From: an uncultured Thermoleophilia bacterium
GTDB taxonomy: Bacteria; Actinomycetota; Thermoleophilia; UBA2241
NCBI GenBank assembly: GCA_963705205.1
Contig: CAVPJG010000007.1
Location: 84,336-148,335 of the forward strand
Reading direction: 5' to 3'
Length of the DNA: 64,000 nucleotides
Shown: piece after piece, positions 32,334 through 57,739 of the stretch
How the letters are laid out: each line of letters begins with the position of its first letter
Position numbering within the stretch: position 1 is the stretch's first letter
Made by a program: the position numbers and the translations under genes
The notes under the pieces: generated by a model
The model's database searches: none
Told to the model about the DNA's origin: nothing
The model's input: only the letters and a program-made list of their open reading frames with translations

Positions 32334-32349
32334 CGGTAGCTCCCGGGTC

Positions 32350-35082: not shown

Positions 35083-36921
35083 ATGGCTCGAGCGGACTGC
35101 CGGCGCGGGCGGCGGCGAGCCGTTCCTCGCCCTCATCTTCTTGGTCCACTGCTGGGCCGCGTGCGTGGGCGCGTCTCGGCGCCGGCACCTCGCCCTCGCA
35201 CCCCGGCCGCCGACAAGGTCACGCTGCGCCTCGGCTGGACCGAGAGCCCCCTCAACCTCAATCCCTTCATCGGCTACAGCAACTCCTACGAGATCTGGCT
35301 GCTCAACTACGACACGCTGGTCGCCGTCGGCGCCGACGGGCTGCCGTCAAAGGAGACCGGTCTGGCCGAGGACTGGACGCTCTCGGAGGACGAGAAGGAG
35401 TGGACCTTCAAGATCCGCGAGGGCGTCACGTGGCAGGACGGCGAGCCGCTCACCGCGCGCGACGTCGCCTGGACCTTCAACACCATCATCGAGGAAGAGC
35501 TCAGCCTTGCGGTCTACCTCAAGGACGTGGAGAAGGCGGTCGCCGTCGACGACACCACGCTCAAGGTGTACTGCAGCGCGCCCAAGGCGAACATGCTGCT
35601 CACGCAGGTCTACATCTACATCCTGCCGGAGCACATCTGGGGCAAGCTCAGCGCCGACGAGATGAGCAACACCTTCCGCAACCCGCTGCCGATCGTAGGG
35701 TCGGGCCCGTTCCAGACGGTGGAGTTCAAGAAGGATGGGTACGTCAAGATGGTCCGCAATCCGACGTACTGGGGCCAGCAGCCGACGATCGACGAGGTCA
35801 TCTTCCAGTACTACACCAACTCGGACACGATGGTGCAGGACCTCAAGAGCGGGGCCATCGACGGCGCCCAGGTCATCCCAGCTACGCAGTTCAAGCAGTT
35901 GCAGAGCGAGCCCGGGATCGAGGCGATCCCATACCCGCTGTACAACTGGGAGTACATCGACATCAACTGCTACGACAGCCCGGACTCGCTTGGCAATCCG
36001 GTGCTGCGCGACCCCACGTTCCGCGTGGCCATGGCGTGGGCGATCGACCGCGAGAAGTGCGCGAGCCTCGCCTGGAACGGTCTCGCCGACCCCGGGTACG
36101 GCATCTTCCCGAAGAAGGGCTGGCCCGAGACGGCGAACCCCTACTACCAGCCGGACGCGGCGAACACCATCGGCTTCGACCTCGAGAAGGCGAAGGGGCT
36201 CATGGACGAAGCCGGCTACAGGGACGCTGACGGCGACGGCGTCCGTGAGGACAAGAAGGGCGAGCCCATCAAGCTCCGCCTGTGGGCGCGCGACATCTCG
36301 CCCGAGAGCCAGGTGCAGGGCAAGCTCATCGCCGGCTGGCTGCAGGACATCGGCCTGGAGATCGACTACTCGGTCGTGGACGAGGGCGCGCTCGGCGACG
36401 ACATCTGGAACTACAAGGGTGACACCTACGCGCCCGACTACGACCTCGCGCTCTGGGACTTCATGGGCTACATCGACCCCGGCGACTCCGCCGCCTGCTT
36501 CACCACCGACCAGATCGAGAACTACAACGAGATGAACTGGTCCAACGCGGAGTACGACAGGCTCACCGTGGAGCAGTACCGCGAGATGGACACGGCGGCG
36601 CGCATGGAACTGCTCAAGCAGGCGCAGGGCGTGATGTACGCCGAGCAGCCGATGATCGTCATCGACTACCCGTCGGTGCTGCAGGCCGTGGACACCTCGC
36701 GGTGGGAGGGCTGGCAGCCGTACGTCGGTGGCAGCGTGTGGAACAACTTCCTCGACCGTCAGAGCTACCTGGAGCTGAAGCCGAAAGCGGCGACAGCGGC
36801 GAGTGACGAGGGCGGGTCGTCGGTCCTGGCGTGGGTCCTCGTCGGCGTCGCCGCGTTCGTCGGCGCCGCGATCGTGGTCTGGCTGAAGCGTCGCGGCTCC
36901 GGGCGCGCGGTCGAAGAGTGA
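35083..36921 (+). CDS. ABC transporter substrate-binding protein, family 5 (peptide/nickel/opine type), with C-terminal transmembrane anchor
   Basis: SBP_bac_5 fold (LRLGWTESPLNLNPFIGYSNSYEIWLLNYDTLV ... GPFQTVEFKKDGYVKMVRNPTYWG). The C-terminus SVLAWVLVGVAAFVGAAIVVWLKRRGSGR is a TM helix plus basic stop-transfer. No clean signal peptide is present in this frame; a hydrophobic FLALIFLVHCWAAC segment sits in the +1 frame at 35120-35165. Confidence 0.75.
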   Translation: MARADCRRGRRRAVPRPHLLGPLLGRVRGRVSAPAPRPRTPAADKVTLRLGWTESPLNLNPFIGYSNSYEIWLLNYDTLVAVGADGLPSKETGLAEDWTLSEDEKEWTFKIREGVTWQDGEPLTARDVAWTFNTIIEEELSLAVYLKDVEKAVAVDDTTLKVYCSAPKANMLLTQVYIYILPEHIWGKLSADEMSNTFRNPLPIVGSGPFQTVEFKKDGYVKMVRNPTYWGQQPTIDEVIFQYYTNSDTMVQDLKSGAIDGAQVIPATQFKQLQSEPGIEAIPYPLYNWEYIDINCYDSPDSLGNPVLRDPTFRVAMAWAIDREKCASLAWNGLADPGYGIFPKKGWPETANPYYQPDAANTIGFDLEKAKGLMDEAGYRDADGDGVREDKKGEPIKLRLWARDISPESQVQGKLIAGWLQDIGLEIDYSVVDEGALGDDIWNYKGDTYAPDYDLALWDFMGYIDPGDSAACFTTDQIENYNEMNWSNAEYDRLTVEQYREMDTAARMELLKQAQGVMYAEQPMIVIDYPSVLQAVDTSRWEGWQPYVGGSVWNNFLDRQSYLELKPKAATAASDEGGSSVLAWVLVGVAAFVGAAIVVWLKRRGSGRAVEE

Positions 36922-37718
36922 CCGCGCCCGGCGACTACCACGTCCACACCACGTGGTCTGACGGCACCGGCAGCGTCGAGGAGTGTGTGCTGCGCGCCGT
37001 CGAGCTCGGGCTGCCCGAGATCGGCATCGCCGACCACGTCTCGACGGCGGCCAGACCCGGCGAGGAGTGGTGTGTCCCGCTCGACCGGCTGGACGCGTAC
37101 TGCGAGGACGTCCGCGCCGCGGCGGCGCGGCATCCGGGGATCAAGGTGCTGCTCGGCCTCGAGGCGGAGTACCTGGACGGCGGCGAGGCCGAGCTGGACG
37201 CGCTGCTCGACGCCTGGCCGTTCGACTTCGTCGTCCTCGGGGTGCATGTGGTGGACGGGTTCGACTTCGACGACCCTTCCCTGCGCGCGGATCCGCGCTG
37301 GGACGACCCCGATGCATTGCTCAAGGCCTACTACCGCATCGTGCGGCGGGCGTCCGAGCACGGCCGGTTCGACATCCTCGCGCACGTGGATTACATCGGC
37401 CTCTGGGGACACCGGCCGGGACCCTCCGTCCTGCCGGAGATCGACGCGGCGCTGGACGCGCTGGCCGCGTCGGGACGCGCGCTGGAGCTGAACACCGACC
37501 GCGTCAGCGACCCGGCCGGCGTCATGTACCCGTCGCTCGAGATCCTGCGTGCCGCACGCGTGCGCGGCATCCCGCTGACGATCGACTCGGACGCGCACGA
37601 GGCGGCGCACGTCGGCCGTCTGTGGGGCGAGGCCATCGCCCTAGCGCGCGCGGCCGGCTACCGCGAGACGCTGCGCGTGTCCGACCACACGCTGGTGCCG
37701 CTCCCGGACCGGGCCTGA
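36918..37718 (+). CDS. PHP-domain phosphoesterase (histidinol-phosphatase HisJ family)
   Basis: GTG 36918 overlaps the SBP stop (GTGA). DYHVHTTWSDGTGSVEE ... IGIADHV ... LGLEAEY ... ILAHVDYI ... DSDAHE are the PHP metal-binding motifs. Confidence 0.7.
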   Translation: MTAPGDYHVHTTWSDGTGSVEECVLRAVELGLPEIGIADHVSTAARPGEEWCVPLDRLDAYCEDVRAAAARHPGIKVLLGLEAEYLDGGEAELDALLDAWPFDFVVLGVHVVDGFDFDDPSLRADPRWDDPDALLKAYYRIVRRASEHGRFDILAHVDYIGLWGHRPGPSVLPEIDAALDALAASGRALELNTDRVSDPAGVMYPSLEILRAARVRGIPLTIDSDAHEAAHVGRLWGEAIALARAAGYRETLRVSDHTLVPLPDRA

Positions 37719-37846
37719 GCTCGAGGGGGTGGGGAACGCCTGCGCCGTCCCCGCCTCAGCATGACGGCGGTCCGCGCCGCCGTCCGTAGTATCGTTGGTG
37801 TCGCTGCGGCCGGATGAGCTCAAGCATCGCGACGTCGGGGTGGACA

Positions 37847-39289
37847 ATGGAGAGTTGCAGGAACCTGATCGGCGGCGAGTGGATCGGTGCCAGTGACCAC
37901 GCGAGCTTGGAGACGAGGAACCCGGCGCGAGCCGACGAGGTCCTCGCCGTGTTCCCCAGCGCGACCGCCGAGGACGCGGCGCAGGCGGCGGCCGCCGCGG
38001 CCGAGGCCTTCCCGGCCTGGGCGGCCACGCCGGCTCCCGCGCGCGGCGCCATCCTCTTCAGGGCCGCCGAGCTGCTCACCGAGCGCCTCGACGAGGTCGC
38101 GCGCACGCTCACGCGCGAGGAGGGCAAGACACTCGCCGAGGCGACCGGCGAGGTCGTCCGCGCCCGCGACATCCTGCGCTACTTCGGCGGAGAGGGCTGG
38201 CGGCCCGGCGGCGACGTCCTGCCGCCCAACACGGCGAACGCCATGTTGTTCAGCCGCCGTGAGCCGCTCGGCGTGGTGGCCGCGATCACGCCCTGGAACT
38301 TCCCCATCGCCATCCCGGCGTGGAAGATCGCGCCGGCACTCGTCTACGGCAACGCCGTCGTCTTCAAGCCGGCGTCGGCCACCCCGCTCACGGCGCTCCG
38401 CCTGGTCGAGTGCCTCGTCGACGCCGGCCTGCCGGCCGGCGTCCTCAACCTCGTCACCGGTCAAGGGTCCGTGGTCGGCGGCGCCCTGGCCGGCGACCCG
38501 GTGGTGAGCGGCCTCACCTTCACCGGGTCGCACGCCACGGGCGTGCGCATCTACGGGCGCGCGACGGGTCACTTCGCGCGCGTCCAGCTCGAGATGGGCG
38601 GCAAGAACCCGATGATCGTGCTCGACGACGCCGACCTCGGCCTCGCCGTCAAGCTGGCCATCATGGGCGGCTTCGCGCTCACCGGACAGAGCTGCACGGC
38701 CACCAGCCGGGTGATCGTCGAGGACGGCATCGCCGACCGGTTCGCGGCGGCGCTCGCGGAGGCCGCCAACGCGCTCCACGTCGGCGATGGACTCGAGGAA
38801 GGCGTGCAGATGGGCCCGGCCGTGAGCGAGGACCAGCTGGCGACCGACCTCGAGTACGTACGCATCGGCCGCGAGGAGGGCGCTGAGCTCCTCGCCGGCG
38901 GCGGCCGGGCCGGCGAGGACGGCCACTTCCTGCGGCCGACGGTGTTCGACGGCGTGGATGTCCACAGCCGGCTCGGCCAGGAGGAGATCTTCGGCCCGGT
39001 GGTCGGGATCTTGCGCGCCCGGGACCTCGATGACGCCATCTTCAAGGCCAACGCTGTCGGCTACGGGCTCGCCGCGAGTGTCGTGACCAGCGACCTGCGC
39101 CGGGCGATGGCGTTCGTCGATCGCATCGAGGCCGGCGTGGTCAAGGTCAACGAGCCGACGACGGGCCTGGCCCTGCAGGCACCCTTCGGCGGCTTCAAGC
39201 AGTCGAGCGCCAACACGTTCAAGGAGCAGGGCCCCGCGGCCCTCGACTTCTACACCCGCACCAAGACCGTGTACGTGACCTACGCCTGA
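37847..39289 (+). CDS. NAD(P)+-dependent aldehyde dehydrogenase
   Basis: ALDH motifs: FTGSHATGVRI, LEMGGKNPMIVLDDADL, catalytic GQSCTATSRVIV, and EEIFGPVV. The start is ATG 37847; ATG 37814 is an alternative. Confidence 0.9.
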   Translation: MESCRNLIGGEWIGASDHASLETRNPARADEVLAVFPSATAEDAAQAAAAAAEAFPAWAATPAPARGAILFRAAELLTERLDEVARTLTREEGKTLAEATGEVVRARDILRYFGGEGWRPGGDVLPPNTANAMLFSRREPLGVVAAITPWNFPIAIPAWKIAPALVYGNAVVFKPASATPLTALRLVECLVDAGLPAGVLNLVTGQGSVVGGALAGDPVVSGLTFTGSHATGVRIYGRATGHFARVQLEMGGKNPMIVLDDADLGLAVKLAIMGGFALTGQSCTATSRVIVEDGIADRFAAALAEAANALHVGDGLEEGVQMGPAVSEDQLATDLEYVRIGREEGAELLAGGGRAGEDGHFLRPTVFDGVDVHSRLGQEEIFGPVVGILRARDLDDAIFKANAVGYGLAASVVTSDLRRAMAFVDRIEAGVVKVNEPTTGLALQAPFGGFKQSSANTFKEQGPAALDFYTRTKTVYVTYA

Positions 39290-39777
39290 GCGGCGCCCTG
39301 CCGTGCCGTGGCCAACCCCGGCTGCGCAGGTGCTGTTGCCGACGTCGCCGCGACGGGTAGACTCTCCGTATGGCAGGGGATGTCATTGAGTCGACGCACG
39401 TGCTGTTCGTCACCGGCCCGATGAGGGAGCGGCTGTACCGGCGCTTCTGCGCGCTCTTCGACGGGCGTGACGACGTGGAGGTCAGGATCGACCGCCGCGT
39501 TGCCGAGCGACGCCGCCGCATGGGCAGCCCGCTGGACCGCGAGCGGCGGTCCGGCGACCGCCGCCGCCGGCGCCCGGAGTGGATCGTCCCCCGCCCGAGG
39601 GCGTGTGACCAACCCGTGACCCCGCTCCCGCGGGCGCTCACGCATCCAGCGCCGAACCAGGTTCCCGGGCCCCGCGCATTGACGGACGCAGCCGAGTCAA
39701 CCGCCGGTGCGCCGCAAGTACGCCGACTATATACTCTGCAGACGTCCGTCCCGGGTAATCGTCGTGGAGGTTGTTCA

Positions 39778-40581
39778 ATGCTGTTGATGGGTGAATCGAT
39801 CAACGGGACGCGCAAGCAGGTCGCCGAGGCGATCCAGGCGCGTGACGCGGAGTTCATCAAGACACTGGCGCAGGACCAGATCGACGCCGGCGCCGGCCTT
39901 CTCGACGTCAACGGCGGCGTCGCCGGCGGAAACGAGGTCGAGGACCTGCTCTGGCTCATCGAGATCGTCATGGGCGTCACCGACATGCAGCTCATGGTCG
40001 ACTCCGCCAATCCCAAGGCGCTCGACGCGGGCGTCCAGGCGATCATCGACAAGGGCGGCAAAGTGCCGTTCATCAACTCGATCTCCGGCGAGCAGCCGCG
40101 CATCGACGCCGTCATGCCGCTCGTCGAGAAGCATAAGTGCCCCGTCGTCGGCCTCTGCCTCAGCGATGAGGGCATCCCGCCGACCGCCGAGGACCGCTTC
40201 GCCGTCGCCAAGCAGATCTTCGACCTGTGCACCGGCGCCGGCCTGCCGGCCGAGGATCTGTGGATCGACCCGCTGGTCATGGCCGTCTCCGCCGACCCGT
40301 CGGCGCCCGGCGTCACCATGGAGACGCTCAGACTGGTCAAGGACCGCCTGCCGTCCCGCACCACCGGCGGCCTCAGCAACGTGAGCTTCGGTCTGCCCAA
40401 CCGCGGTCTGCTCAACCGCACCTTCGTGGCCATGTGCGCGGGTCTCGGCCTCGACGGCCTGATCGTCGACGTCCGCAACAAGCAGATGATGGCGACCATC
40501 AAGTCGATCGAAGCCCTTCGCGGCGAGGACAACTTCTGCGGCTCGTACCTCAAGGCTCACCGCGCCGGCATCCTGGAATAG
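39778..40581 (+). CDS. pterin-binding methyltransferase (MtrH / methyltetrahydrofolate:corrinoid methyltransferase family, MtgA-like)
   Basis: ATG 39778 sits 7 nt after GGAGG. MLLMGESINGTRKQVAEAIQARDAEFIKTLAQDQIDAGAGLLDVNGGV ... FINSISGE ... GLSNVSFGLP is the pterin-binding TIM-barrel pattern of methylcorrinoid:THF methyltransferases. The 136 in-frame codons upstream (39370-39777) have no stop and may be non-coding leader. Confidence 0.65.
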   Translation: MLLMGESINGTRKQVAEAIQARDAEFIKTLAQDQIDAGAGLLDVNGGVAGGNEVEDLLWLIEIVMGVTDMQLMVDSANPKALDAGVQAIIDKGGKVPFINSISGEQPRIDAVMPLVEKHKCPVVGLCLSDEGIPPTAEDRFAVAKQIFDLCTGAGLPAEDLWIDPLVMAVSADPSAPGVTMETLRLVKDRLPSRTTGGLSNVSFGLPNRGLLNRTFVAMCAGLGLDGLIVDVRNKQMMATIKSIEALRGEDNFCGSYLKAHRAGILE

Positions 40582-40588
40582 CAGCCGC

Positions 40589-41701
40589 ATGACCGCGCCG
40601 GAGCGCTGCCGCCTGCGCGACCTCGGCGTCGCCGTGGGCAGACTGCCGGCCGGACCGCTCAACGCGATCACCGACGTGTCCGGCGTGCGCGTCGGTCACT
40701 GCACCGTCTCGTGGGGCGGGCCCGAGCTGCCGCACGGCAGCGGGCCCGCCCGCACGGGCGTGACCGCGGTCTTCCCGCACGCCGGCGACCTCTGGCACGA
40801 GCGTGTCGTCGCCGGCGCCCACGCCGCCAACGGCGTCGGCGAGATCATCGGCATCAGCGCCGTCCGCGAGTGGGGGCTCGTCGAGACGCCGGTCCTGCTC
40901 ACCAACTCGCAGAGCGCCGGCGCCGTCTACGACGCGACCATCCGCTGGCTCATGGAGCGCGAGCCGCTCGCCGGCGTGGAGGACGCCGTCATGCCGGTGG
41001 TCGGTGAGTGCGACGACGGGTTCCTCAACGACCTGCGCGGCCTGCACGTGCACGAAGAGCACGTCCGCGCCGCGCTGGACACAGCGGCGGCCGGTCCTGT
41101 GGCCGAGGGCTGCGTGGGGGCAGGCGCCGGCATGTCGTGCTACGACTTCAAGGCGGGGATCGGTACATCGTCCCGCCTCGTCACCGCTCACGGCCGCCCG
41201 TGGACAGTCGGCGTGCTGGCGCTCACCAACTTCGGCCTGCGCCACCGGCTGAGCATGGACGGCGTGCCGGTGGGGCGTGAGATCGCCGACCTCATGCCGC
41301 GCGAGAACCGCGAGGGCTCGTGCATCGTCGTGCTGGCGACCGACGCACCGCTCAGCGCGCGGCAGTGCGGCCGGCTGGCCAAGCGCTGCGCGCTCGGACT
41401 CGCCGCCACCGGGTCGTACGCGTCGGACGGCAGCGGGGAGATCATGCTGGCCTTCACCACGGCGCATCGCGTACCACGCACGTCCCCCGAGCCGCTCGTT
41501 CTCGCGTCGATAGCCAACGACCAGATGACGGAGCTCTTCGAAGCGGCCGTGGACGCAACGGCCGAGAGCGTGTGCAACGCGCTCACTGCGGCGACCACCA
41601 CCGTGGGGCGCGACGGCAACACCGCCTACGCGCTGCCGCTCGACCGTCTCGTCGGCGTCCTGCGGCGCGCAGGGCGCGAGGCGCGGCTGCCCGGGGCGTA
41701 G
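40589..41701 (+). CDS. DmpA/ArgJ-like S58 (P1) family aminopeptidase (D-aminopeptidase/L-aminopeptidase D-Ala-esterase-amidase type)
   Basis: NAITDVSGVRVGHCTV ... RTGVTAV ... GEIIGISAV, with the autoproteolytic Gly-Ser/Thr region; fits the DmpA family. Length 370 aa. Confidence 0.75.
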   Translation: MTAPERCRLRDLGVAVGRLPAGPLNAITDVSGVRVGHCTVSWGGPELPHGSGPARTGVTAVFPHAGDLWHERVVAGAHAANGVGEIIGISAVREWGLVETPVLLTNSQSAGAVYDATIRWLMEREPLAGVEDAVMPVVGECDDGFLNDLRGLHVHEEHVRAALDTAAAGPVAEGCVGAGAGMSCYDFKAGIGTSSRLVTAHGRPWTVGVLALTNFGLRHRLSMDGVPVGREIADLMPRENREGSCIVVLATDAPLSARQCGRLAKRCALGLAATGSYASDGSGEIMLAFTTAHRVPRTSPEPLVLASIANDQMTELFEAAVDATAESVCNALTAATTTVGRDGNTAYALPLDRLVGVLRRAGREARLPGA

Positions 41702-42023
41702 CCCGCCTTGCCGCGCCGCGCCGCGCCGACTATCCTGACCTCGAAGCGCCCGGCGCAGCGTTCCACGCACCGCCGGGCCGTCAGGGGGGTAGCACACGGC
41801 GAGACGCCCGTCATGTCGGCATGTCCTCATCGCCGCAGCCGCGGATCTTCCGCGCTGCCGACGGAAGGCCGGATCTACGCCGTCCAATCTCTTCGAGGTC
41901 CCCCCGGGGTCATCCTCGCCGGCGTCGGTGCCGCAAACGCCGGGGGTCCGGCAACCACGGATGTGAGAAGGGGGTAAGGGTCCGTCCGCGTTCGGGGCCG
42001 GACGCGCGTGACCCGAGAGTGCA

Positions 42024-44526: not shown

Positions 44527-44527
<1 letters not shown>
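42989..44527 (+). CDS. ABC transporter permease (DppC/OppC type) with extended N-terminal membrane region
   Basis: ATG 42989 overlaps the preceding stop (ATGA). The core DppC-like region carries the EAA-loop area (KAIGSKNGHIMTKHVLPNVMPLIFANLVL). About 230 extra N-terminal residues contain additional hydrophobic helices. Length 512 aa. Confidence 0.8.
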
Positions 44528-45614
<1,087 letters not shown>

Positions 45615-45618
<4 letters not shown>

Positions 45619-46658: not shown

Positions 46659-46743
46659 CGGAGAAGCGCCGGCCGGGGCGGTGGGCCGCGAGGCACGCAC
46701 CGCCCCGGCCGGGCTGCGCATGAGCAGACGGAGGAGCCGGCAG

Positions 46744-48572
46744 ATGAGACGCAGCCACGCCGCGCAGGGGCAGACGGCCGCGCCGCGCCGGCTTCTCGCC
46801 GCTCTTGCCTGCGCGGTGGCGGTGCTCGCCGGCTTGGCCGCACCTTCCGCACCGCTCCCCGCGGCGGCCGCTGCCACGTCGACCGAGCCGCTCGCGTACC
46901 GGATCGGGACCACCGTGGAGTGCGACGGCGTGAACCCGTTCGTCTCGTCGAGCCCGATCTCCCGCGAGTGCCTGCAGCTCGGGTACGACTTCCTCACCCG
47001 GTACGACGCCGACTACCGGCCCGTGCCGGACATCGCGGAGAGCTGGGTGGTCTCGAGCGACGGGACCACCTGGACCTTCCGCGTACGCGAGGGCATGACC
47101 TGGCACGACGGGGTCCCGCTCACCGCCCACGACGTGGCGTTCACCTACGGTCTGATCCTCGAGACGCGGGCGCCGGCCTACGCTCACCACCTCGCCGGCG
47201 TGAAGAGCGTCACGGCGCCGGACGACCGCACGGTGGTGATCGTCACCCGCCGGCCGAGGGCGGACCTGCTCGGCCTGGCCGTGCCCATCCTCCCCGAGCA
47301 CCTGTGGAAGAGCGTCGATCCCGACGCGCTCGACGTCTCCGGGAGCCCGCCGTTCGTCGGCTCCGGACCGTTCCGCATCGAGGAGGTGCAGAGCGGCGGG
47401 GTCCGGCTCGCGGCCAACGACGCGTATCCCGACGCGCTCGGCGGGCGTCCGTCACTCGACGTGCTCGAGTTCGTCGTCGAGCGCGATGCGGGCGCGCTGG
47501 TCGCGGCGTACCAGGCCGGGTCACTCGACGCCGTCGCGGGTTACCCGCCCGCCTACGCGGCAGCCCTCGACGACGCGCCGGGGACGACTGCTGTCGCCGC
47601 CCCGGCCATCGGTCTGCGTGAACTGGTCTTCAACTGCTGGGACGACCGCCGAAGCGGCGGAGACCCTCGGCTGCTCGACCCCTCGATCCGCCGCGCCGTG
47701 CACTGGGCCATCGACAAGGAGAAGCTCGTCCAGGCGGCGACCGCCGGCCTCGCCGTCCCCGGCACCTCACTGCTCTCACCGGCGCAGCCCGGCTGGCGCT
47801 GGGAGGTCCCCGATGCCGGGCTGTACAGGTACGACCCCCTGCGCGCCAAGCGAATCCTGGAAGATGCCGGGTACGCCGACCGCGACGGGGACGGCGTGCG
47901 CGAGGACGCGGCGGACCGCCCGCTCTCCTTCCGTCTCGTGGCCTTCGCAGAGCACCCGGAAGACCAGGCGGCGGCGCGGATGATCGCGCGCTGGTGCCGT
48001 GACGTCGGGATCGACCTCGCGATCGAGGTCCGGGAAGAGGCTGGCTTCAGCGACGACCTGCACCGCCACGCGGATTTCGATGCCTTCCTCTCGACCCGGT
48101 CGGCGACGTCGACCCGGGCTTCCTCCTCGACGGCTTCACCACCGCGCGGATCGGCGAAGGGAGCGAGTCGCGCTACTCGGATCCGTTGTACGACAGCCTC
48201 TACGCCGCCCAGAGGGAGGCCATCGACCCCGCCGACCCGGGCGACACGACGCGCCGCAAGAACATCACCGACGCCATGCAGAAGGTCCTGTATCGCGACG
48301 ACCCCTCGATCGTCCTCTGGTACGAGATGGACCTGCAGGCCTTCCGCACCGACCGCTGGACGGGCTACGCGCCCGCCCCTACGGATGCGGGCGCCCCCTT
48401 CTGGAACCAGCTTCACGCCACCTACCTGGCGCTGCGGCCGCTGCGCGTGGTGGAGCCGGAGCCGCCGGCGCCGGCGGTCCTGCCGTGGCTGGCGGCTGGG
48501 GCACTCGCCGCTGCCGGCGCCGGCGTCGCCCTGTGGCTGCGCCGGCGGCGGAGAACGGGGGGTGCGGGATGA
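46744..48572 (+). pseudogene. second family-5 ABC substrate-binding protein with signal peptide and C-terminal TM anchor; apparent 1-nt deletion near 48085-48093
   Basis: ATG 46744 sits 8 nt after GGAGGAG. Signal peptide MRRSHAAQGQTAAPRRLLAALACAVAVLAGLAAPSA. SBP_bac_5 body to ...HADFDAFL (frame 1). Continuation DPVGDVDPGFLLDGFTTARIGEGSESRYSDPLYDSLYAAQ ... VLPWLAAGALAAAGAGVALWLRRRRR in the adjacent frame to 48572. Confidence 0.7.
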
Positions 48573-48612
48573 CCGCCCTCCGCATCGACACACCTACACG
48601 AGAGGATGCCGC

Positions 48613-50088
48613 ATGACCGAGCTCGCCGCCCTCTGGCCCGACGAAGCGATCGAGGCGATGCACCTCGCGGCGCTCGGCCTGCTCGAACGGGCAGGCGTGC
48701 GTGTGGAGTCGGCCAACGCGAGAGATCTCCTGCTCGCCTCCGGCTGCGTCCCTCTCGGCGAGGACCGGCTCACCATCCCGCGGCGAGCCGTCGAGGATGC
48801 TCTCGCCGCCTGCCCGCGCGCGTACACGCTCGCGGCGCGCGACCCCGAGCGCGCGCTCCTCATGGACCCGGACCCGGGGGAGACCTACGTGCACAACCTC
48901 GGGGGAGCCCGCGACGTGAGCGACGCGCGCACGGGCGCCGGCCGCCGCGCGACGTTGCGGGATCAGGTGCTGGCCACGCGCGTCATGCACCACCTCGTCC
49001 ACCAGCAGCAGGTCACATCGCTCTGGCAGCCGGAGGACGTGCCCGACCTGCTCGAACCGCTGTACTCGTACCTGATCCTCGCGTACGAGACCGACAAGGC
49101 GATCGGTGGGCCCGGCATCTCCCATCCGTTCCAGGCGTTGTACCTGCAGGAGATGGCCCGCGCGGTGACCGGCGCGGACGGCGAGGGCGGGGTGTACCCC
49201 ATCGACCTCGCCTTCTCGCCGGTCAGCCCGCTGATTCTCGGCGGCGATGTCTCCGACGCCCTCGTCGAGCAGGTACGCCGGGGCGGCGTCGCGGTCGAGA
49301 TCCTGCCCTGCCCGGCCGCCGCCACGACGGCGCCCGGCGCGCTCTCCGCGGCGCTGACGCAGCAGCACGCCGAAGTGCTCGCCGGGGTGGTGCTCGCGCA
49401 GGTGGCTGCGCCCGGCACGCCGGTGTACTACGGGCCGCGACTCAGTGCCGTGGACCCACGCAGCGGCGTGGTGGTCAGCGGCACGCCGGAGACAGGCGTC
49501 GCGTCGGTCGCGGCCGTCCTGCTGGCGCGCCGTTGCGGCCTCGCCTGCGACTGCTACGGTCCCTGCAGCGACAGCAAGGTCGTCGACGCGCAGTTCGGCT
49601 ACGAGCGCTCGGTCAACGCGCTCCTCGGCCTGGCGCCCAGACCGCGCCTGCTCTCCGGCGTCGGCGAGATCCAGGCCGGCGTCGCCAGCTGCCTGGAGGT
49701 GCTTGTCATCGACGACGAGGTACTCAACAACGCGCGCTACGCCCTCACGCCGCGGCCCTGGGACGTGGACGCGCTGAACCTGGACGCGATGGTCGACGGC
49801 GTGCTCTCCGGCCGTGGGTTCCTCGGCGCCAAGCACACCCGCCGGTACATCCGCAGCGAGTTCGTCAGCCCGCTGCTCAGCTACCGCGGCGGTCTCGGCG
49901 ACTGGCTCGCCTCGGGCCGTACCGGGCTCGTGGACCTCGCCTCCGACAGAGCGGCCGAGCTCGCCGGCCGCGATCCTCTCGGCCTGCCGGCCGACATCCT
50001 GGACGAGCTCATCGCGCTGATCGACCGGTGTGCCGCCGGCCTCGGCATCAGCGGCCACCCCGACCCGCGCCGCGTGCTCGGCCTGTAG
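48613..50088 (+). CDS. MttB-superfamily methyltransferase (trimethylamine methyltransferase family; non-pyrrolysine quaternary-amine type)
   Basis: 491 aa. MTELAALWPDEAIEAMHLAALGLLERAGVRVESANARDLLLASGCVPLGEDRLTIPRRAVEDALAACP, then a TIM-barrel body with LSPLILGGD... and PETGVASVAAVLLARRCGL, which is the MTTB-family architecture. There is no in-frame amber codon. Confidence 0.7.
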   Translation: MTELAALWPDEAIEAMHLAALGLLERAGVRVESANARDLLLASGCVPLGEDRLTIPRRAVEDALAACPRAYTLAARDPERALLMDPDPGETYVHNLGGARDVSDARTGAGRRATLRDQVLATRVMHHLVHQQQVTSLWQPEDVPDLLEPLYSYLILAYETDKAIGGPGISHPFQALYLQEMARAVTGADGEGGVYPIDLAFSPVSPLILGGDVSDALVEQVRRGGVAVEILPCPAAATTAPGALSAALTQQHAEVLAGVVLAQVAAPGTPVYYGPRLSAVDPRSGVVVSGTPETGVASVAAVLLARRCGLACDCYGPCSDSKVVDAQFGYERSVNALLGLAPRPRLLSGVGEIQAGVASCLEVLVIDDEVLNNARYALTPRPWDVDALNLDAMVDGVLSGRGFLGAKHTRRYIRSEFVSPLLSYRGGLGDWLASGRTGLVDLASDRAAELAGRDPLGLPADILDELIALIDRCAAGLGISGHPDPRRVLGL

Positions 50089-50097
50089 ACTGCCGTC

Positions 50098-51210
50098 ATG
50101 GCCATCCCGTTCATCCACGTCCAGGCGCGCGGCTCGTACCGCGAACTCGGCCGCGCCGTCGGCGAGGCCGCCCGCGACCAGGTGCAGGCGTCGGTCGACT
50201 TCTTCCGCGCGAACTTCGCCACCATGACGGGCGGGCGCCTCACCTTCTCCGCGGCGGAGGAGCTGGCTCCGGCCTACGCCGCCGCGGCGCGCCGCTGGCT
50301 GCCTCGCCACGTCGAGGAACTCGAGGGACTCGCCGAGGGCGCGCGCGTGCCCTTCACTCGCCTGCTCGTGCTCAACTGCGGCGAGGAGTTCACCTCCGAC
50401 GAGCCCGTCGCCGGCGGTCGTGCGCTCTCTCCGGGCGCGCCGCGTTCCGGCGATCACTGCACTGCGGTCGCCGTGGTCGCCGGCGGCCGCCACATCGTGG
50501 GCCACAACATGGACTGGTACGTCATCGACGCGGACAACAACGTCCTCTTCGACCTCACCGGCCCCGACGGCACGCGGATCATGGGGCTGGCCGGCGCGCC
50601 GTACCTGCTCATGCTCGGCATGAACAGCCGCGGCATCGCCAATGTGAGCAACTCGGTGCACTCCAACGACAACAGGGTCGGCGTCCCCAACGCGTTCGTC
50701 CGGAGGGCGACCCTGGAGGCGCGGACGCTCGAGGAGGCGCGGGACCGCGGCCTGCTGGCCGCCCGCGCCCGAGGCACCAACCAGTTCTTCGCCGACACGG
50801 ACGGGCGGCTCTGGGACCTGGAGACGTCGGCCACCGCCCACGTCCTCATGGATCACACGAGCGCCGGCTTCATGGCCCACACCAACCACTACGTCTCGCC
50901 CGACATGCGGCCCTTCGAGGGCTACGCCGGCGGCGAGTCCGAGGTCAGGCTCTCCACGGCCGAGCGCCTGCTTGGGGAGGGCGTCTCCGCCGGGAAGGAT
51001 CCGGTAGAGCTCGTGGCACGGGTCCTGCGCACCCACGAGCCTTCTCCCGCCGAGGCGATCTGTGGCCACCCCGATGCTGATGAGGCACCGGCCGAACGGG
51101 GCATGACGGTCGGCAGCATCATCTGTGACCTGGACGAGCGTCGCCTCTACGCTTGCGCGGGCACGCCGTGCGAGAACGAGTACCAGGCCTTCGAGATGGG
51201 CGACGCATGA
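50098..51210 (+). CDS. C45-family peptidase / acyl-CoA:6-aminopenicillanic-acid acyltransferase-like Ntn hydrolase
   Basis: SYRELGRAVGEAARDQV and the autoproteolytic/nucleophile region SGDHCTAVAV are characteristic of the AAT/C45 family. Length 370 aa. Confidence 0.7.
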   Translation: MAIPFIHVQARGSYRELGRAVGEAARDQVQASVDFFRANFATMTGGRLTFSAAEELAPAYAAAARRWLPRHVEELEGLAEGARVPFTRLLVLNCGEEFTSDEPVAGGRALSPGAPRSGDHCTAVAVVAGGRHIVGHNMDWYVIDADNNVLFDLTGPDGTRIMGLAGAPYLLMLGMNSRGIANVSNSVHSNDNRVGVPNAFVRRATLEARTLEEARDRGLLAARARGTNQFFADTDGRLWDLETSATAHVLMDHTSAGFMAHTNHYVSPDMRPFEGYAGGESEVRLSTAERLLGEGVSAGKDPVELVARVLRTHEPSPAEAICGHPDADEAPAERGMTVGSIICDLDERRLYACAGTPCENEYQAFEMGDA

Positions 51211-52856
51211 CGGTCCACGACCTGGTCGTCGCCGGCGCCCGCGTCGTCGACGGCTGCGGCAACCCCTGGTACCTCGGCGACGTCGGCGTCCGCGGCGACC
51301 GGATCGCGGCGATCGGGGCGCCGGGGTCGCTGCGCGGCCGGCGCGTCGTCGACGCCGCCGGCCGCTACGTGGCCCCCGGCTTCATCGATCCGCACACGCA
51401 CTCCGATCTCTCCATCCTGCTGTACCCGCGCGCCGAGACGGCGGTGCGCCAGGGCGTGACCACGCACGTCACCGGCAACTGCGGCATGTCTGCGGCGCCG
51501 CTCACCGAGGCGCGCCGCGACGCCGCCGTCCAGAACTGGGCGCACTACGGCTGGGGCCTGGACGACGTGGCCTGGGACTGGCGCACCTTCGGCCAGTACC
51601 TGACGGCGGTGCGCCGCGGCGGCCATGCGATCAACATCGCGCCGCTCGTCGGCCACGGCGCCCTGCGACTGGCGGTCGTCGGCTTCGCCGAGCGCGCCGT
51701 GACGGAGCGCGAGCTCGCGCGCATGGAGCGGCTCCTGGACGCCAGCATGCGCGCCGGCGCGCACGGCATGTCCAGCGGCCTCGTGTACCCGCCGGGCTGC
51801 TTCGCGAGCACCGACGAGCTGCTCGCGCTGTGCCGGGTGGTGGCGCGTCACCAGGGCATCTACACCTCGCACGTGCGCGGCGAGCGTGAGACGATCCTCA
51901 CCGCCGTCGCCGAGGCGCTGGCGTTGGCGCGCGCCGCCGGCTGTCCCGTCGAGGTCTCGCACAACGCGCCCAAGTGGGGCGCGCCCGACGACGCCTCAGC
52001 CAACCTCGCCTTGATCGAGGAGGCGCGGCGCGGCGGCCTCGACGCGACCACGGACAACGACGTGCACACCGACCTCGCGCCGCGCTTCTCGCGGGCGCTG
52101 CCGCAGCCGGTGCTCGACCTCACCCACGACGCGCTCATGGCGCTGCTCACGGACCCCGAGGCCCGCACGGCGCTCAGGCGCGAGGTGCTCGAGGACGCCC
52201 TGCCGGGCGCCGGATACGCCGGCGTTGTCCGGCACGGCCGCTTCGACAGGGTCGTCGTGTTCCACGCCGGCCGCACCCCGGAGCAGCGCGGCCGCTCTGT
52301 GGCCGACATCGCCGCCGAGCGCGGCGCCGATGCGTTCGACACCTTCCTCGACCTCATCGTCGAGAACGACGACGACATCGTCGGGCTCTTCGACTACATC
52401 GAGGAGAAGAACATCCGGGCGCTGCTGCAGAGCCCGCTCGCGATGATCTCGTCCGACGGCCTCGTGATGCCGCCGCCGGACGAACTGGACGACCCGTCGC
52501 TCTACTGGCCCTGCAGCTACGGGGAGTACCCGGGCGTGCTCGAGCGCTACGTGCGCGACGAGCCGGTGCTGCGCCTCGAGGAGGCCATCCGCAAGATGAC
52601 CTCCTTCCCGGCGCAGCGCTTCCGCCTCTTCGACCGGGGCGCCCTGCGCCCCGGCCTCAAGGCCGACCTCGTCGTCTTTGACCTCGAAACGGTGCGCGAT
52701 CGGGCGACGAACCTCTACCCGCACGCGTACCCCTTCGAGAACATCCCGCACGCCTCGCCCGAGGGGATCGACTGGGTGCTGGTCAACGGTGTGCCCGTGC
52801 TCGCGGAGGGTGAGCATACGGGGGAGCTTCCCGGCCGCGTGCTGAAGCGGACGTAG
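51207..52856 (+). CDS. N-acyl-D-amino-acid deacylase (D-aminoacylase; amidohydrolase superfamily)
   Basis: ATG 51207 overlaps the upstream stop (ATGA). DLVVAGARVVDGCGNPWYLGDVGVRGDRIAAIG ... APGFIDPHTHSDL ... GVTTHVTGNCGMS is the D-aminoacylase pattern with the metal-binding HxH. Confidence 0.8.
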   Translation: MTVHDLVVAGARVVDGCGNPWYLGDVGVRGDRIAAIGAPGSLRGRRVVDAAGRYVAPGFIDPHTHSDLSILLYPRAETAVRQGVTTHVTGNCGMSAAPLTEARRDAAVQNWAHYGWGLDDVAWDWRTFGQYLTAVRRGGHAINIAPLVGHGALRLAVVGFAERAVTERELARMERLLDASMRAGAHGMSSGLVYPPGCFASTDELLALCRVVARHQGIYTSHVRGERETILTAVAEALALARAAGCPVEVSHNAPKWGAPDDASANLALIEEARRGGLDATTDNDVHTDLAPRFSRALPQPVLDLTHDALMALLTDPEARTALRREVLEDALPGAGYAGVVRHGRFDRVVVFHAGRTPEQRGRSVADIAAERGADAFDTFLDLIVENDDDIVGLFDYIEEKNIRALLQSPLAMISSDGLVMPPPDELDDPSLYWPCSYGEYPGVLERYVRDEPVLRLEEAIRKMTSFPAQRFRLFDRGALRPGLKADLVVFDLETVRDRATNLYPHAYPFENIPHASPEGIDWVLVNGVPVLAEGEHTGELPGRVLKRT

Positions 52857-52979
52857 GACCGCTGCCGCCGGGAAGGATCAGGGGGCGTCCCGGCCCTGTT
52901 CCAGAACGTACAAGGCTTGGCCGGTCTCGACCGCCCAGGACCCTCGCGTTGTACGTGGACACGATGTAGAATCCCGGCG

Positions 52980-54629
52980 ATGATCACCGTCCAGGACATC
53001 CTCGAGATCCCCGAGCTCAACCTGCGACTCCTGGCCGGTCACAAGTCCACCAGCAACCCCGTTCGCTGGGTCCACATCTCCGAGGTCCCCGACCCGACCA
53101 AGTGGCTCAAGGGCGGCGAGCTCCTGCTCACCACCGGTTACAGCTTCGTCGGCGACGAGGGGCAGCAGGTGGCGCAGATCAAACGTCTCATCGACCACAA
53201 CATCTCCGGCCTCGGCTTCGGCACCGGCTTCAGCTTCGACAAGGTGCCGCCCGCGCTGGTCAAGGTCGCCGAGGAGTACGGCTTCCCGCTGTTCGAGGTG
53301 CCGTACCACGTGCCGTTCCTGGCCATCACCGAGGCGGTGGCGTCCAAGATCGTCAACGAGCAGTACTCGCTCCTGCAGCGCAGCCTGGCCGTCCACGAGA
53401 AGCTCACCAAGATCGTGCTGGAGGAGAAGGGCCTCGAGGCCATCCTGTCCACGCTCTCGGCCCTGGTCGGCTGCTCCGCCGTCCTGTTCGACTTCCACGG
53501 CGTCGTGCTCTGCGAGGCGGCGTACCGCCGTCACCTGGGCGCCGAGCTGGTCGCCGACCTGTGGCGGCTCATCGGCGACCGCCGCGCCGACCGCCAGAAC
53601 TTCGCCCTCAGCATGGACGGCGTGGGCTCGGGCGTGCAGGTCTATCCGGTGGTCGCGTCGCACCGCATCGGCGCGTTCCTCGCCGCGGTCAAGGACAGCG
53701 GCGACTTCAGCGAGTACGACCGCATCATTCTGCACAACGTGGTCACCGTCACAGCGCTGGAGCTGGTCAAGAAGAAGGCCGTCGCCGAGACCGAGAAGCG
53801 GCTCGCCGGCGACTTCTTCGACGAGCTCATCGCCAGCGACCTGTACGAGGAGGAGATCGCCCGGCGGCTCGCCTTCTTCGGGCTCGACCCGCAGTCGCCG
53901 CACCTCATCGTGCTCGTCGGCATCGACGACGCGCCGGAAGGCGCGGCGGACGAGCGCAGCGAGGCCGCCGCGCTCGACGTCAAGGAGCGGCTGCACTGGG
54001 CCGTGGACGAGTTCATGGCCAGGCGCGACGTGCTGTGCATCAGCGCGTCGCGCAGCGACTCCGTCGTCGTCCTCGTACAACCCGGCAAGATCGACGCCCG
54101 CGAGATCATCGGGCTCGCAGGGGAGCTGCAGGCCGTCATCGCGGAGATGCTGCCGGAGATCTCGGTGTCCGTCGGCATCGGCCGGCCGCACCGCCAGCTC
54201 ATCGACCTGCGCCAGAGCTACTACGAGGCGAGCTACGCCATCAAGATCCGCAAGCTCAAGGGCGAGCCGCGCGTTATCGCGAGCTTCGACGACCTGGGCT
54301 CGTACGGGCTGCTGCTCGGCCTGCAGGACACGCTGTCGCTCGAGGTCTTCTACGACAGCGTGCTCGGCAAGCTCCAGGAGTACGACGAGCAGAACTCGAG
54401 CGACCTGGTCAAGAGCCTCGCCTGCTTCCTCGAGGCCAACGGCCACTGGGGCGACGCCGCCGAGAAGCTGTATGTGCACCGGCACACGTTGCGCTACCGC
54501 ATGAAGCGCGTGGAGGAGATCACCGGCCGCGACCTCAACCAGTCGCAGGACCGCATGGAGTTCTGGCTGGCCCTCAAGGCCAAGGAGCTCATCGACCAGT
54601 CGAAGAGGGGCAAGCCCGCCTCCGCGTGA
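52980..54629 (+). CDS. PucR/CdaR-family transcriptional regulator
   Basis: The ATG lies 7 nt after a TAGAAT -10 box, so the mRNA may be leaderless. N-terminal PucR-type sensor region, a central GGDEF-like domain, and a C-terminal HTH (LYVHRHTLRYRMKRVEEITGRDL). Length 549 aa. Confidence 0.8.
   Translation: MITVQDILEIPELNLRLLAGHKSTSNPVRWVHISEVPDPTKWLKGGELLLTTGYSFVGDEGQQVAQIKRLIDHNISGLGFGTGFSFDKVPPALVKVAEEYGFPLFEVPYHVPFLAITEAVASKIVNEQYSLLQRSLAVHEKLTKIVLEEKGLEAILSTLSALVGCSAVLFDFHGVVLCEAAYRRHLGAELVADLWRLIGDRRADRQNFALSMDGVGSGVQVYPVVASHRIGAFLAAVKDSGDFSEYDRIILHNVVTVTALELVKKKAVAETEKRLAGDFFDELIASDLYEEEIARRLAFFGLDPQSPHLIVLVGIDDAPEGAADERSEAAALDVKERLHWAVDEFMARRDVLCISASRSDSVVVLVQPGKIDAREIIGLAGELQAVIAEMLPEISVSVGIGRPHRQLIDLRQSYYEASYAIKIRKLKGEPRVIASFDDLGSYGLLLGLQDTLSLEVFYDSVLGKLQEYDEQNSSDLVKSLACFLEANGHWGDAAEKLYVHRHTLRYRMKRVEEITGRDLNQSQDRMEFWLALKAKELIDQSKRGKPASA

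Positions 54630-56617: not shown

Positions 56618-57739
<1,122 letters not shown>

Follow-up and report, generated by a model that had tools for sequence, protein, structure and literature searches.

A conserved Thermoleophilia operon encoding a peptide-type ABC importer, amide hydrolases and an MttB-like/MeTr methyltransferase pair

Results

Gene content and organization of the locus

We analysed a window of 64 kb (the whole stretch of DNA under study) from an uncultured Thermoleophilia bacterium and reported the genes found at positions 35083-54629. All of them lie on the + strand, in the frame with high third-position GC. The gene families named in the original prediction were all confirmed, each where it had been placed, by Pfam, NCBIfam and PDB searches, and curated family cut-offs were passed for the MT2 methyltransferase, the C45 and S58 hydrolases, the transporter and the PucR regulator.

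The first three genes encode an SBP_bac_5 binding protein (SBP5 no. 1; 35083-36921; PF00496, 268.6 bits), a PHP-family phosphoesterase (36983-37718, the start being uncertain between 36831 and 36983; PF02811, 74 bits) and an NAD(P)-dependent aldehyde dehydrogenase (37814-39289; PF00171, 545 bits). No N-terminal signal peptide was visible at the called start of SBP5 no. 1, and the specificity of this protein could not be read from its PDB matches, because they span peptide, chitin-oligosaccharide and nickel binders. The best NCBIfam models for the aldehyde dehydrogenase, both below cut-off, were those of alpha-ketoglutaric semialdehyde dehydrogenase and betaine-aldehyde dehydrogenase (BADH). 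All three genes had been counted as members of the cluster and all are present, but the PHP and SBP5 no. 1 genes are accessory, outside the conserved core, and the aldehyde dehydrogenase gene adjoins the core often rather than always, being the gene 5' of MeTr in 18 out of the 28 loci with a visible upstream gene. Among the loci with a flank reaching that far, the PHP gene was found 5' of the aldehyde dehydrogenase in L028 only.

An open reading frame of 403 codons, previously taken as one pterin-binding gene, does contain the methyl-corrinoid:tetrahydrofolate methyltransferase MeTr (MT2 of the AcsE/MeTr/MtgA type, 267 aa; 39778-40581; PF00809, Pterin_bind), but it also includes, in the same frame, a preceding small ORF of ~75 aa (MAGDVIESTHVLFVTGPMRERLYRRF...; 39370-39600, end approximate). 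The PDB matches to MeTr begin at residue ~132-137 of the 403-aa ORF, and the orthologues in relatives are called at 267 aa. The small ORF has an Arg-rich tail and no Pfam match; it is called as a separate gene of 79-130 aa in relatives and, according to tblastn, is kept 5' of MeTr in >30 loci, including those of the 61-64% clade. MeTr scored 283.6 bits (cut-off 259) with NCBIfam NF005719, a model named for corrinoid/iron-sulfur protein methyltransferase, and its best PDB matches included 4o0q (E 1.6e-46), an MT2 of Desulfitobacterium hafniense, and AcsE 2e7f (E 2.7e-44). The earlier label 'MtrH/MtgA-like' was replaced by AcsE/MeTr type, since Pfam gave PF00809 only and not the MtrH family.

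After a spacer of 7 nt follows a peptidase S58, an N-terminal-nucleophile aminopeptidase of the DmpA/BapA type (40589-41701; PF03576, 379 bits), with PDB matches to 2drh (E 1e-94), DmpA 1b65 (E 5e-73) and BapA 3n2w, and with a GS motif at residues 243-244 followed by CIVVLATDAPL. The importer comprises a DppB/OppB-type permease (42024-42992; PF00528 and PF19300), a DppC/OppC-type permease (42989-44527; PF12911 at residues 149-187, PF00528 at 251-437), and the DppD-type (44527-45618) and DppF-type (45615-46658) ATPases, both with PF00005 and PF08352. DppC carries ~150 extra N-terminal residues, hydrophobic-looking by eye, and a Gly-rich tail.

A second binding protein, SBP5 no. 2 (46681-48572; PF00496, 234.6 bits), has a twin-arginine-type signal. 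As originally proposed, both binding proteins end in a membrane anchor, with a hydrophobic helix and then an Arg/Lys-rich tail in each. Compared with locus L010, which is 92% identical and has this ORF intact, the SBP5 no. 2 gene has lost 1 nt near 48090 and is frameshifted; the tail resumes in a different frame and the alignment differs by a single gap. Its counterpart in L001 is also intact (620 aa). The 1135-codon ORF at 46681-50088 is not a fusion but the artefact of a stop-free frame spanning SBP5 no. 2 and the next gene, which encodes a non-pyrrolysine MttB-superfamily protein of 491 aa, the presumed MT1 (48613-50088; PF06253, MTTB, 201 bits).

The MttB-like gene is followed after 9 nt by a C45-family (AAT/C45) autoproteolytic N-terminal-nucleophile hydrolase or acyltransferase (50098-51210; PF03417), which reached 183 bits with NCBIfam NF040521 (cut-off 85), matched IAT 2x1d in the PDB (E 9e-11) and has Cys121, within DHCTA, as candidate nucleophile. 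Next is an Amidohydro_3 homologue of N-acyl-D-amino-acid deacylases (51207-52856; PF07969), with PDB matches to D-aminoacylase 1m7j (E 2e-77) and N-acyl-D-Glu deacylase 3gip (E 9e-67) and an alignment that keeps the motifs HTH, NCG, SH(V/M)R, SH and SDG. Finally, a PucR-family transcriptional regulator (52917-54629, with a possible ATG start at 52980; PF07905, PF17853, PF13556) showed weak NCBIfam similarity to PmfR and AdeR.

The genes dppB, dppC, dppD and dppF are translationally coupled or very closely spaced (the dppD start overlaps the dppC stop as TGATG), and the amidohydrolase start overlaps the C45 stop (ATGA). The MttB-like gene has 9-40 nt spacers to the genes on either side, and in L001 it overlaps the SBP stop. 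Larger gaps lie 5' of MeTr (488 nt) and 5' of dppB (322 nt), which leave space for three or four transcription units, and the cluster may be split into separate transcripts; a promoter and terminator scan of the cluster was uninformative on this point.

Conservation across Thermoleophilia and Actinomycetota

Comparison loci were read with ±10-kb flanks. The core order (small ORF, MeTr, S58, DppBCDF, SBP5, MttB-like, C45, D-aminoacylase-like, PucR) was syntenic in about 35 of the 37 Thermoleophilia/Actinomycetota MAG loci with adequate coverage, mostly a short way 3' of groEL. The expected co-conservation was therefore borne out: C45, DppB, DppC and DppF were each present in 36 loci, MeTr, DppD and PucR in 35, S58 in 33 and Amidohydro_3 in 29, and in the two loci without MeTr its position fell beyond the flank limit. 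Among the hydrolases, C45 accompanies MttB most consistently. The cluster had been described as an island, but it has the G+C of its flanks and relatives carry it at the same chromosomal position, 3' of groES-groEL, and this conserved synteny indicates an inherited operon rather than a foreign island.

Reduced versions consist of MeTr-SBP-MttB-PucR (L039) or MeTr-DppBCDF-MttB-C45-PucR (L058-L060), so that MeTr and MttB stay together. In other lineages (L076, L081-L083) MttB homologues adjoin SBP5/DppBCDF importers without these hydrolases, evidence that importer and methyltransferase belong together. Chloroflexota orthologues of the MttB-like protein are solitary genes in unrelated neighbourhoods, suggesting that the methyltransferase can work without the hydrolases. 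The claim that the gene combination was undescribed also stands, as full-text literature searches found no paper on it.

The MttB-like subfamily

The MttB-like protein scored 232 bits with TIGR02369 (cut-off 525), and its best PDB matches were MttB 7xcl (E 2.5e-41) and MtgB 9yce (E 9e-38), with 2qne (MtgB) also among them; it is ~30% identical to the solved members. Identity to its orthologues is 61-96% within Actinomycetota and 62-67% for those from Chloroflexota. Below this, only about five full-length representative clusters reach 43-54% and two lie at 38%, most of the family being at ~30%. On these sequence relationships we assign the protein to a distinct, new subfamily of the MttB superfamily. 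All four glycine-betaine-binding residues of MtgB, Y97/R312/H348/F356 (PMC13080624), are replaced, by G98/D313/S348/G356, and D313 and S348 are invariant across the subfamily. Because of these replacements, glycine betaine is an unlikely substrate.

Search for a corrinoid protein

As originally noted, no B12-binding gene is present in the cluster, and Pfam detected none among the GC3-supported ORFs across the entire window. A six-frame motif scan of the 64 kb for the B12-binding domain and a tblastn search with the MetH B12 domain found nothing either. Neither the window nor the ±10-kb loci of the operon yielded a cobalamin riboswitch, a folate-C1 gene, or a gene for a corrinoid protein or RamA-type activase, and none of the ~70 subfamily or paralogue loci scanned had a corrinoid gene. 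A canonical corrinoid gene nearby, the outcome that would have made this a standard system, is thus absent. The scan method works, since the same regex and tblastn search recovered real corrinoid genes in L084 and L086, beside distant Chloroflexia MttB homologues. A search seeded with the Chloroflexia corrinoid protein returned Chloroflexi-type orthologues only.

The premise that MttB-family genes normally adjoin their corrinoid gene did not hold. Eubacterium limosum encodes MtpB, MtcB and MtyB apart from MtqC and from MtqA/RamQ (PMC8604678), and Ruegeria pomeroyi has MtgB, MtgC and MtgD at separate loci (PMC12478193); a missing adjacent gene is therefore no anomaly in itself. The carrier gene is assumed, and most likely, to lie elsewhere in the genome.

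Discussion

We lean towards reading the operon as a substrate-specific module for uptake, hydrolysis and demethylation, with corrinoid protein and activase in trans and a methylated peptide-like nitrogen compound as putative substrate. The membrane-anchored family-5 binding protein and the DppBCDF-type importer would import a small compound, peptide-like or amide-linked, with a methylated ammonium group, and its amide bonds would be cut by the N-terminal-nucleophile and metallo-amidases (C45 in nearly all loci, S58 usually, the D-aminoacylase-like enzyme often). The MttB-like enzyme would then pass the methyl group to a cob(I)amide carrier and MeTr would pass it on to tetrahydrofolate, the carrier and its reductive activase being probably common to other methyltransferases; the PucR regulator would control the operon. 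We infer which way the methyl group moves, that its carrier is encoded in trans, that hydrolysis precedes demethylation, and what kind of compound is consumed. The only known chemistry of the MT2 family needs a corrinoid partner, which we count in favour of corrinoid-dependent transfer. A peptide-like betaine is a plausible substrate, though we know of no natural compound that needs this enzyme set.

Similar designs are known. In the quaternary-amine:THF systems of E. limosum (MtpB/MtcB/MtyB with shared MtqC, MtqA and RamQ), a non-pyrrolysine MT1 also adjoins a transporter and a regulator, apart from corrinoid protein and activase, and methyl groups reach tetrahydrofolate via a MeTr-type MT2 (PMC8604678). 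In contrast, the operon described here includes the MT2 and three amide hydrolases, has an MT1 of a different subfamily, and uses a Dpp-type ABC importer with anchored SBP5 instead of an MFS carrier. D. hafniense MtgB-MtgC-MtgA draws MT1 and MT2 from the same two families, whereas here there is no adjacent MtgC and the betaine-binding residues are replaced (PMC13080624). R. pomeroyi, which demethylates betaine aerobically, shares its corrinoid protein with a split methionine synthase (PMC12478193). That organism belongs to a different phylum and probably differs in oxygen lifestyle; in our operon MT1 and pterin-binding MT2 are linked, and the window showed no connection to methionine synthesis.

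The Bacillus subtilis dppABCDE operon combines a Dpp-type importer with a D-specific aminopeptidase, and Ochrobactrum anthropi DmpA is a homologue of our S58 protein; neither system is known to include methyltransferase, C45 or D-aminoacylase genes. An alternative reading is a division into two unrelated functions, in which Dpp and the hydrolases salvage D-amino-acid peptides (e.g. cell-wall stem peptides, as the Bacillus dpp operon does) and MttB with MeTr demethylates a free betaine entering by another route. S58, D-aminoacylase and the M55 DppA-type peptidase of L002 are indeed classic D-peptide enzymes, the cluster is closely followed on its 3' side by genes for an alanine dehydrogenase and a beta-lactamase/S12-like protein, and the Chloroflexota orthologues stand alone. 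We nevertheless find this division unlikely, as MttB sits tightly between the binding-protein and C45 genes, in an arrangement kept down to 61% identity, and its homologues in L081-L083 pair with SBP5/Dpp importers where these hydrolases are missing.

Rather improbable, in our judgement, is a methyl pair without a dedicated MtxC-type protein, in which an MttB-like/MeTr complex methylates tetrahydrofolate directly or relies on a cobamide, either free or bound to the enzyme, or on the acetyl-CoA pathway's corrinoid iron-sulfur protein. The constant pairing of MT1 and MT2, the corrinoid-free loci despite a working scan, the subfamily's own conserved pocket and the name of the NCBIfam model passed by MeTr would all fit, and the methods of one study describe methylation of free cob(I)alamin by MT1 enzymes in vitro (PMC13080624). 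However, all characterised members of both families use protein-bound corrinoid, separated genes are common in characterised systems (PMC8604678, PMC12478193), and related MAGs of the order UBA2241, from anoxic habitats, are reported to encode corrinoid proteins, HgcA among them (PMC7438021). That the MttB-like protein works in the opposite direction, using methyl-THF to methylate an amine, or no longer has methyltransferase activity, as its replaced binding residues and its score far under the equivalog cut-off might suggest, is very doubtful given the strong full-length matches to the MttB fold, the constant MeTr partner and the catabolic setting of import and hydrolysis.

Returning to the demethylation module, one locus of the order UBA2241 (L031) carries the operon and three others are Stordalen MAGs (L046, L059, L079); expression of mtxB genes is reported for Stordalen Mire Actinobacteriota (PMC10805028). 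The hosts are probably anaerobic or facultative Thermoleophilia, and the operon, passed on vertically in these uncultured soil and sediment bacteria, probably serves catabolism.

Gene content and conservation of the cluster

All the protein families named in the original prediction were recovered by Pfam at their expected places on the + strand and were sharpened by curated models and solved structures. The 64-kb window has a G+C content of ~70%, and because stop-free frames are common at this composition, genes were picked by third-position GC. The core genes follow a typical actinobacterial order (hemD, rplM-rpsI, glmM, glmS ribozyme and glmS, acpS, alr, tsaE and tsaD, groES-groEL), and the nearest relatives of the window genes are metagenome-assembled genomes labelled Thermoleophilia; one related locus (L010) shared 92% DNA identity with the window across 16 kb. 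The glmS ribozyme precedes glmS at 5124-5298, and the window has a single tRNA gene; the second coordinate pair recorded for these features is 61421-61494.

We compared the window proteins by tblastn with 78 loci carrying 10-kb flanks, taken from a scan of species-representative genomes, and counted genes in the 37 Actinomycetota loci with at least 8 kb upstream and at least 6 kb downstream. The genes proved to be syntenic with the MttB-like gene in these relatives: DppB, DppC, DppF and the C45 hydrolase were each present in 36 loci, DppD and the PucR regulator in 35, the S58 peptidase in 33 and the D-aminoacylase-like protein in 29, while the pterin-binding methyltransferase (MeTr) was present in 35, both loci without it ending at the flank limit. 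Reduced loci retain both MeTr and MttB, as MeTr-DppBCDF-MttB-C45-PucR (L058-L060) or MeTr-SBP-MttB-PucR (L039). In the 70% clade the operon starts directly after groEL. In the clade of the window, adenylate-cyclase genes, the first family-5 binding protein (SBP5 no. 1, 35083-36921), a PHP gene and an aldehyde dehydrogenase stand between groEL and the operon; of 28 informative loci, 18 have the aldehyde dehydrogenase next upstream and the remainder GroEL or a cyclase. Because the genes between groEL and the small ORF at ~39370 vary among relatives, the conserved core runs from this ORF to PucR, and SBP5 no. 1, PHP and the aldehyde dehydrogenase, which had been counted in a cluster spanning 35083-54629, fall outside it. 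Between groEL and the cluster (30891-35188, - strand), two fusions of alpha/beta-hydrolase and adenylate/guanylate-cyclase flank a tandem cNMP-binding protein; these genes occur in some relatives only.

The idea of an island did not survive. The G+C content of the cluster (0.65-0.73) equals that of its flanks and its position after groEL is conserved in relatives, so horizontal acquisition was rejected in favour of an inherited operon; the Pfam scan found no mobility genes. The cluster is real and conserved and, as far as full-text literature searches show, undescribed.

Frameshifts split three genes of the window: alanine racemase (alr, 9660-10836), a TPP-dependent acetolactate-synthase-like gene (23636-25601) and the second family-5 binding protein (SBP5 no. 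2, 46681-48572). The shift in the latter lies near 48090, where one base is missing compared with L010; the gene is unbroken in relatives. It ends at 48572 and the MttB-like gene starts at 48613. A 1135-codon ORF covering both was rejected as an SBP-MttB fusion, given a GC3 frame switch, an SBP tail in another frame and separate genes in the orthologues. As alr, normally an essential gene, and the TPP enzyme are also frameshifted, assembly indel error is more likely than decay into pseudogenes.

The MttB-like methyltransferase

The MttB-like protein (48613-50088) belongs to the MttB superfamily, matching PF06253 over its full length (201.3 bits, cut-off 25; positions 29-497 of the 500-position profile). 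Its placement in the non-pyrrolysine branch was borne out: the ORF is uninterrupted and has no amber codon in frame where pyrrolysine would stand. The residue of the MttB-like protein that aligns with the pyrrolysine of structure 7xcl is Cys318, a position variable within the subfamily. With 232.6 bits against the TIGR02369 equivalog cut-off of 525, the protein lies outside MttB proper, and it is ~30% identical to the solved MttB and MtgB. Among full-length representatives (clusters at 50% identity), about five clusters were at 43-54% identity and two at 38%, with the bulk of the family at ~30%. Every one of the more than 100 orthologues with 70-96% identity came from uncultured Thermoleophilia or Actinomycetota, and an exact-match lookup found no record of the window's own protein. 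Its predicted activity, presumed from family membership, would be substrate:cob(I)amide methyl transfer.

In MtgB, Y97 and F356 grip the quaternary nitrogen and R312 and H348 the carboxylate of the betaine (PMC13080624). When the protein is aligned by HMMER to 9yce, which has a chain numbering two lower, the residues Y97, R312, H348 and F356 correspond to G98, D313, S348 and G356 of the MttB-like protein, and D313 and S348 are invariant throughout the subfamily alignment. As all four betaine-binding residues differ, glycine betaine was judged an unlikely substrate. The acid in place of the MtgB arginine hints at a substrate that may lack that carboxylate or carry an extra positive charge.

The pterin-binding methyltransferase and the small ORF

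The 403-codon ORF read as a single pterin protein consists of a conserved small ORF of ~75 aa (39370-39600) followed by a MeTr of 267 aa (39778-40581), with a GGAGG motif 8 nt before the MeTr ATG, as read from the translations. The small ORF has an Arg-rich tail and no Pfam match; it is kept down to the 61-64% clade and, in the window, is in frame with MeTr with no intervening stop. We rejected the possibility that the 136 N-terminal residues conceal a B12 domain, as they represent this separate ORF and contain no DxHxxG. MeTr scored 283.6 bits (cut-off 259) with NF005719, the NCBIfam model of methyl-THF:corrinoid/iron-sulfur protein methyltransferase, and matched the structures 4o0q, 2yci and 2e7f (E 1e-44 to 1e-46), its closest structural relatives being Desulfitobacterium MT2 and AcsE. 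The earlier label "MtrH-like" had to be dropped, since the Pfam scan gave PF00809 alone at E ≤ 0.001 and no MtrH model.

Importer and hydrolases

The importer genes (42024-46658) and the binding protein show the full composition of a Dpp/Opp-type system (two copies of PF00528, two of PF00005 with PF08352, and one PF00496). In both binding proteins the C-terminus consists of a hydrophobic helix plus a basic tail, in agreement with the predicted C-terminal membrane anchors. Despite its anchor, SBP5 no. 1 does not begin with a recognisable signal peptide as called (35083-35230), and its true start or a further frameshift may be hidden upstream. Inference of binding specificity from PDB neighbours was dropped, as the matches mix peptide, chitin-oligosaccharide, nickel and opine binders.

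The S58 protein (PF03576, 379 bits; DmpA structure 1b65 at E 5e-73) matched DmpA, BapA and the Pyrococcus D-aminopeptidase. Its sequence contains G243-S244, then CIVVLATDAPL; from DmpA, we take G243-S244 to be the Gly-Ser self-cleavage and nucleophile motif. The C45 protein passed the subfamily cut-off of NF040521 (183.1 bits against 85), with Cys121 in DHCTA as its candidate nucleophile. The amidohydrolase is clearly homologous to D-aminoacylase and to N-acyl-D-glutamate deacylase, and when aligned to 1m7j it retained the metal and catalytic motifs HTH, NCG, SH(V/M)R, SH and SDG. The metal and catalytic residues of the Alcaligenes D-aminoacylase are H67, H69, C96, H220, H250 and D366; by its residues the protein qualifies as a putative N-acyl-D-amino-acid deacylase with predicted D-stereospecificity. 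A related locus (L002) also carries an M55 DppA-type peptidase. These four enzymes are all predicted cutters of amide bonds in unusual peptides, and the simplest substrate to suit them all would thus be a methylammonium compound that is peptide-like or amide-linked. Among the candidates are peptides that contain trimethyllysine or are trimethylated at the N-terminus, and betaines joined through an amide bond to D- or beta-amino acids.

The cluster could also hold two functions side by side, a peptide module and a separate methyltransferase. The 62-67% Chloroflexota orthologues stand alone among unrelated genes, so the MttB-like protein need not be partnered by the hydrolases. However, MttB homologues adjoin SBP5/DppBCDF genes in other lineages lacking the three hydrolases (L076, L081-L083), which ties the importer to the methyltransferase and speaks for uptake of the methyl donor by the Dpp-type system; two unconnected functions are therefore unlikely. 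L076 (3187-19337) combines SBP5/DppBCDF with two MttB homologues, an S9 prolyl oligopeptidase, a sulfatase and an Amidohydro_3 gene, and two further loci (L019 and L021) carry a second MttB paralogue (54%) inside the operon between SBP5 and PucR; the theme of MttB with a peptide importer therefore recurs.

Absence of a nearby corrinoid protein gene

The original prediction that no B12-binding gene lies near the cluster was confirmed for the credible ORFs of the whole 64-kb window (Pfam). A six-frame scan of the window for the B12-binding motif and a tblastn of the window with the MetH B12 domain were both negative, and no cobalamin riboswitch was found in the window; in the 488-nt and 322-nt gaps there was no cobalamin or THF riboswitch, even at E ≤ 1. 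No B12-binding gene occurred within ±10 kb in any subfamily locus, including the Actinomycetota clusters, the 62-67% Chloroflexota orthologues and the 44-54% paralogues. The three-component MtxB/MtxC/MtxA arrangement, with a co-encoded PF02310 and PF02607 protein, is thus lacking in the window and the subfamily loci. Since the same scan detected a canonical MtxC-type gene beside the 35%-identical MttB homologues of two Chloroflexia loci (L084 and L086), the absence is real and clade-wide.

This absence has precedents and is not the anomaly that it had seemed. In Eubacterium limosum, the genes of MtpB, MtcB and MtyB each have a transporter gene and a regulator gene at their side; MtqC, the corrinoid protein that they share, and the MtqA/RamQ pair have their genes at other sites (PMC8604678). 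The genes of MtgB, MtgC and MtgD in Ruegeria pomeroyi lie apart from one another, and MtgC and MtgD have a further role in methionine synthesis (PMC12478193). Unlike in these two species, MT1 (the MttB-like protein) and MT2 (MeTr) are linked here and the carrier gene is missing. One related locus (L031) belongs to order UBA2241 and carries the operon; UBA2241 genomes with the corrinoid protein HgcA have been described from anoxic water and peat (PMC7438021), and Actinobacteriota of Stordalen Mire express mtxB genes (PMC10805028). A search seeded with the L084 corrinoid protein gave no Thermoleophilia corrinoid protein among the matches listed, all at least 89% identical, and those named were from Chloroflexi only. 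Because the related contigs were read to ±10 kb and the seeded search gave Chloroflexi-type orthologues, the carrier in trans is something we infer.

On balance, we consider it somewhat better than an even chance that the cluster is a substrate-specific operon for uptake, hydrolysis and demethylation, plugging into a corrinoid carrier and an activase encoded elsewhere. Carrier-independent or otherwise non-canonical methyl transfer, which would fit the clade-wide absence, is quite unlikely beside the precedents of unlinked carriers. It is more doubtful still that a clade-wide MT1-MT2 pair demethylates a peptide-derived quaternary amine with no dedicated MtxC, passing the methyl group directly to THF, using a non-canonical carrier or being served by a BcrAD-type activase; if true, an MtxC-free MT1-MT2 pair would be a new architecture for methylamine methyltransferases. 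A non-demethylase role of the MttB-like protein is highly improbable.

In the same Thermoleophilia genomes, a 51-54% MttB paralogue lies downstream of a protein of 1000-1650 aa with two BcrAD_BadFG ATPase domains and DUF2229, of the "CoA-enzyme activase" type (L064:2340-6868; L067:1284-5411; L071:5706-9848; L072:2077-6358; L075:2818-7758). The paralogue directly follows this protein in L071, an MFS transporter adjoins the paralogue in L064 and L075, and no corrinoid gene was found beside the paralogues of these five loci. The BcrAD_BadFG/DUF2229 protein could be an ATP-dependent reductive activase for this MttB branch.

Transcription units and regulation

Spacers are tiny or overlapping within MeTr-S58 and from dppB through the amidohydrolase. 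Larger gaps precede MeTr (488 nt, holding the small ORF), dppB (322 nt) and pucR (60-120 nt), and a consensus scan for promoters and terminators was uninformative in this high-GC DNA. At 41960-42023, ~55 nt upstream of the dppB start, there is a conserved purine-rich element (GAGAAGGGGGTAAGGG) with a possible hairpin; the motif is common to most of 34 aligned intergenic regions and may be a leader or translational control element.

The PucR protein (gene at 52917-54629) weakly resembles PmfR and AdeR, the latter being the Bacillus activator of alanine dehydrogenase. In three related loci (L003-L005) the alanine dehydrogenase adjoins its own AsnC-type regulator and PucR is still present, which favours the operon as the target of PucR. 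The conserved downstream neighbourhood comprises an SDR gene (54666-55403) and a beta-lactamase/S12-like gene (55403-56410), both on the - strand, then alanine dehydrogenase (56618-57739) and a tungsten-type aldehyde:ferredoxin oxidoreductase (57794-59689), both on the + strand. The latter suggests an anaerobic lifestyle.

Significance for the MttB superfamily

To our knowledge, the MttB superfamily has thousands of members, and no more than a handful of substrates are known for it. These substrates are trimethylamine, glycine betaine, proline betaine, carnitine, gamma-butyrobetaine and phosphocholine. The operon provides a conserved genomic context, made up of a peptide-type importer, D-/beta-peptide-type amidases and an MT2 of its own. 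This context points to a methylated substrate of another kind, peptide-like or amide-linked. Its hosts are abundant but uncultured Thermoleophilia of soil, peat and sediment; the identity of the substrate would open a distinct MttB subfamily to functional study and would add a route for methyl groups of organic nitrogen into one-carbon metabolism in anoxic soils.
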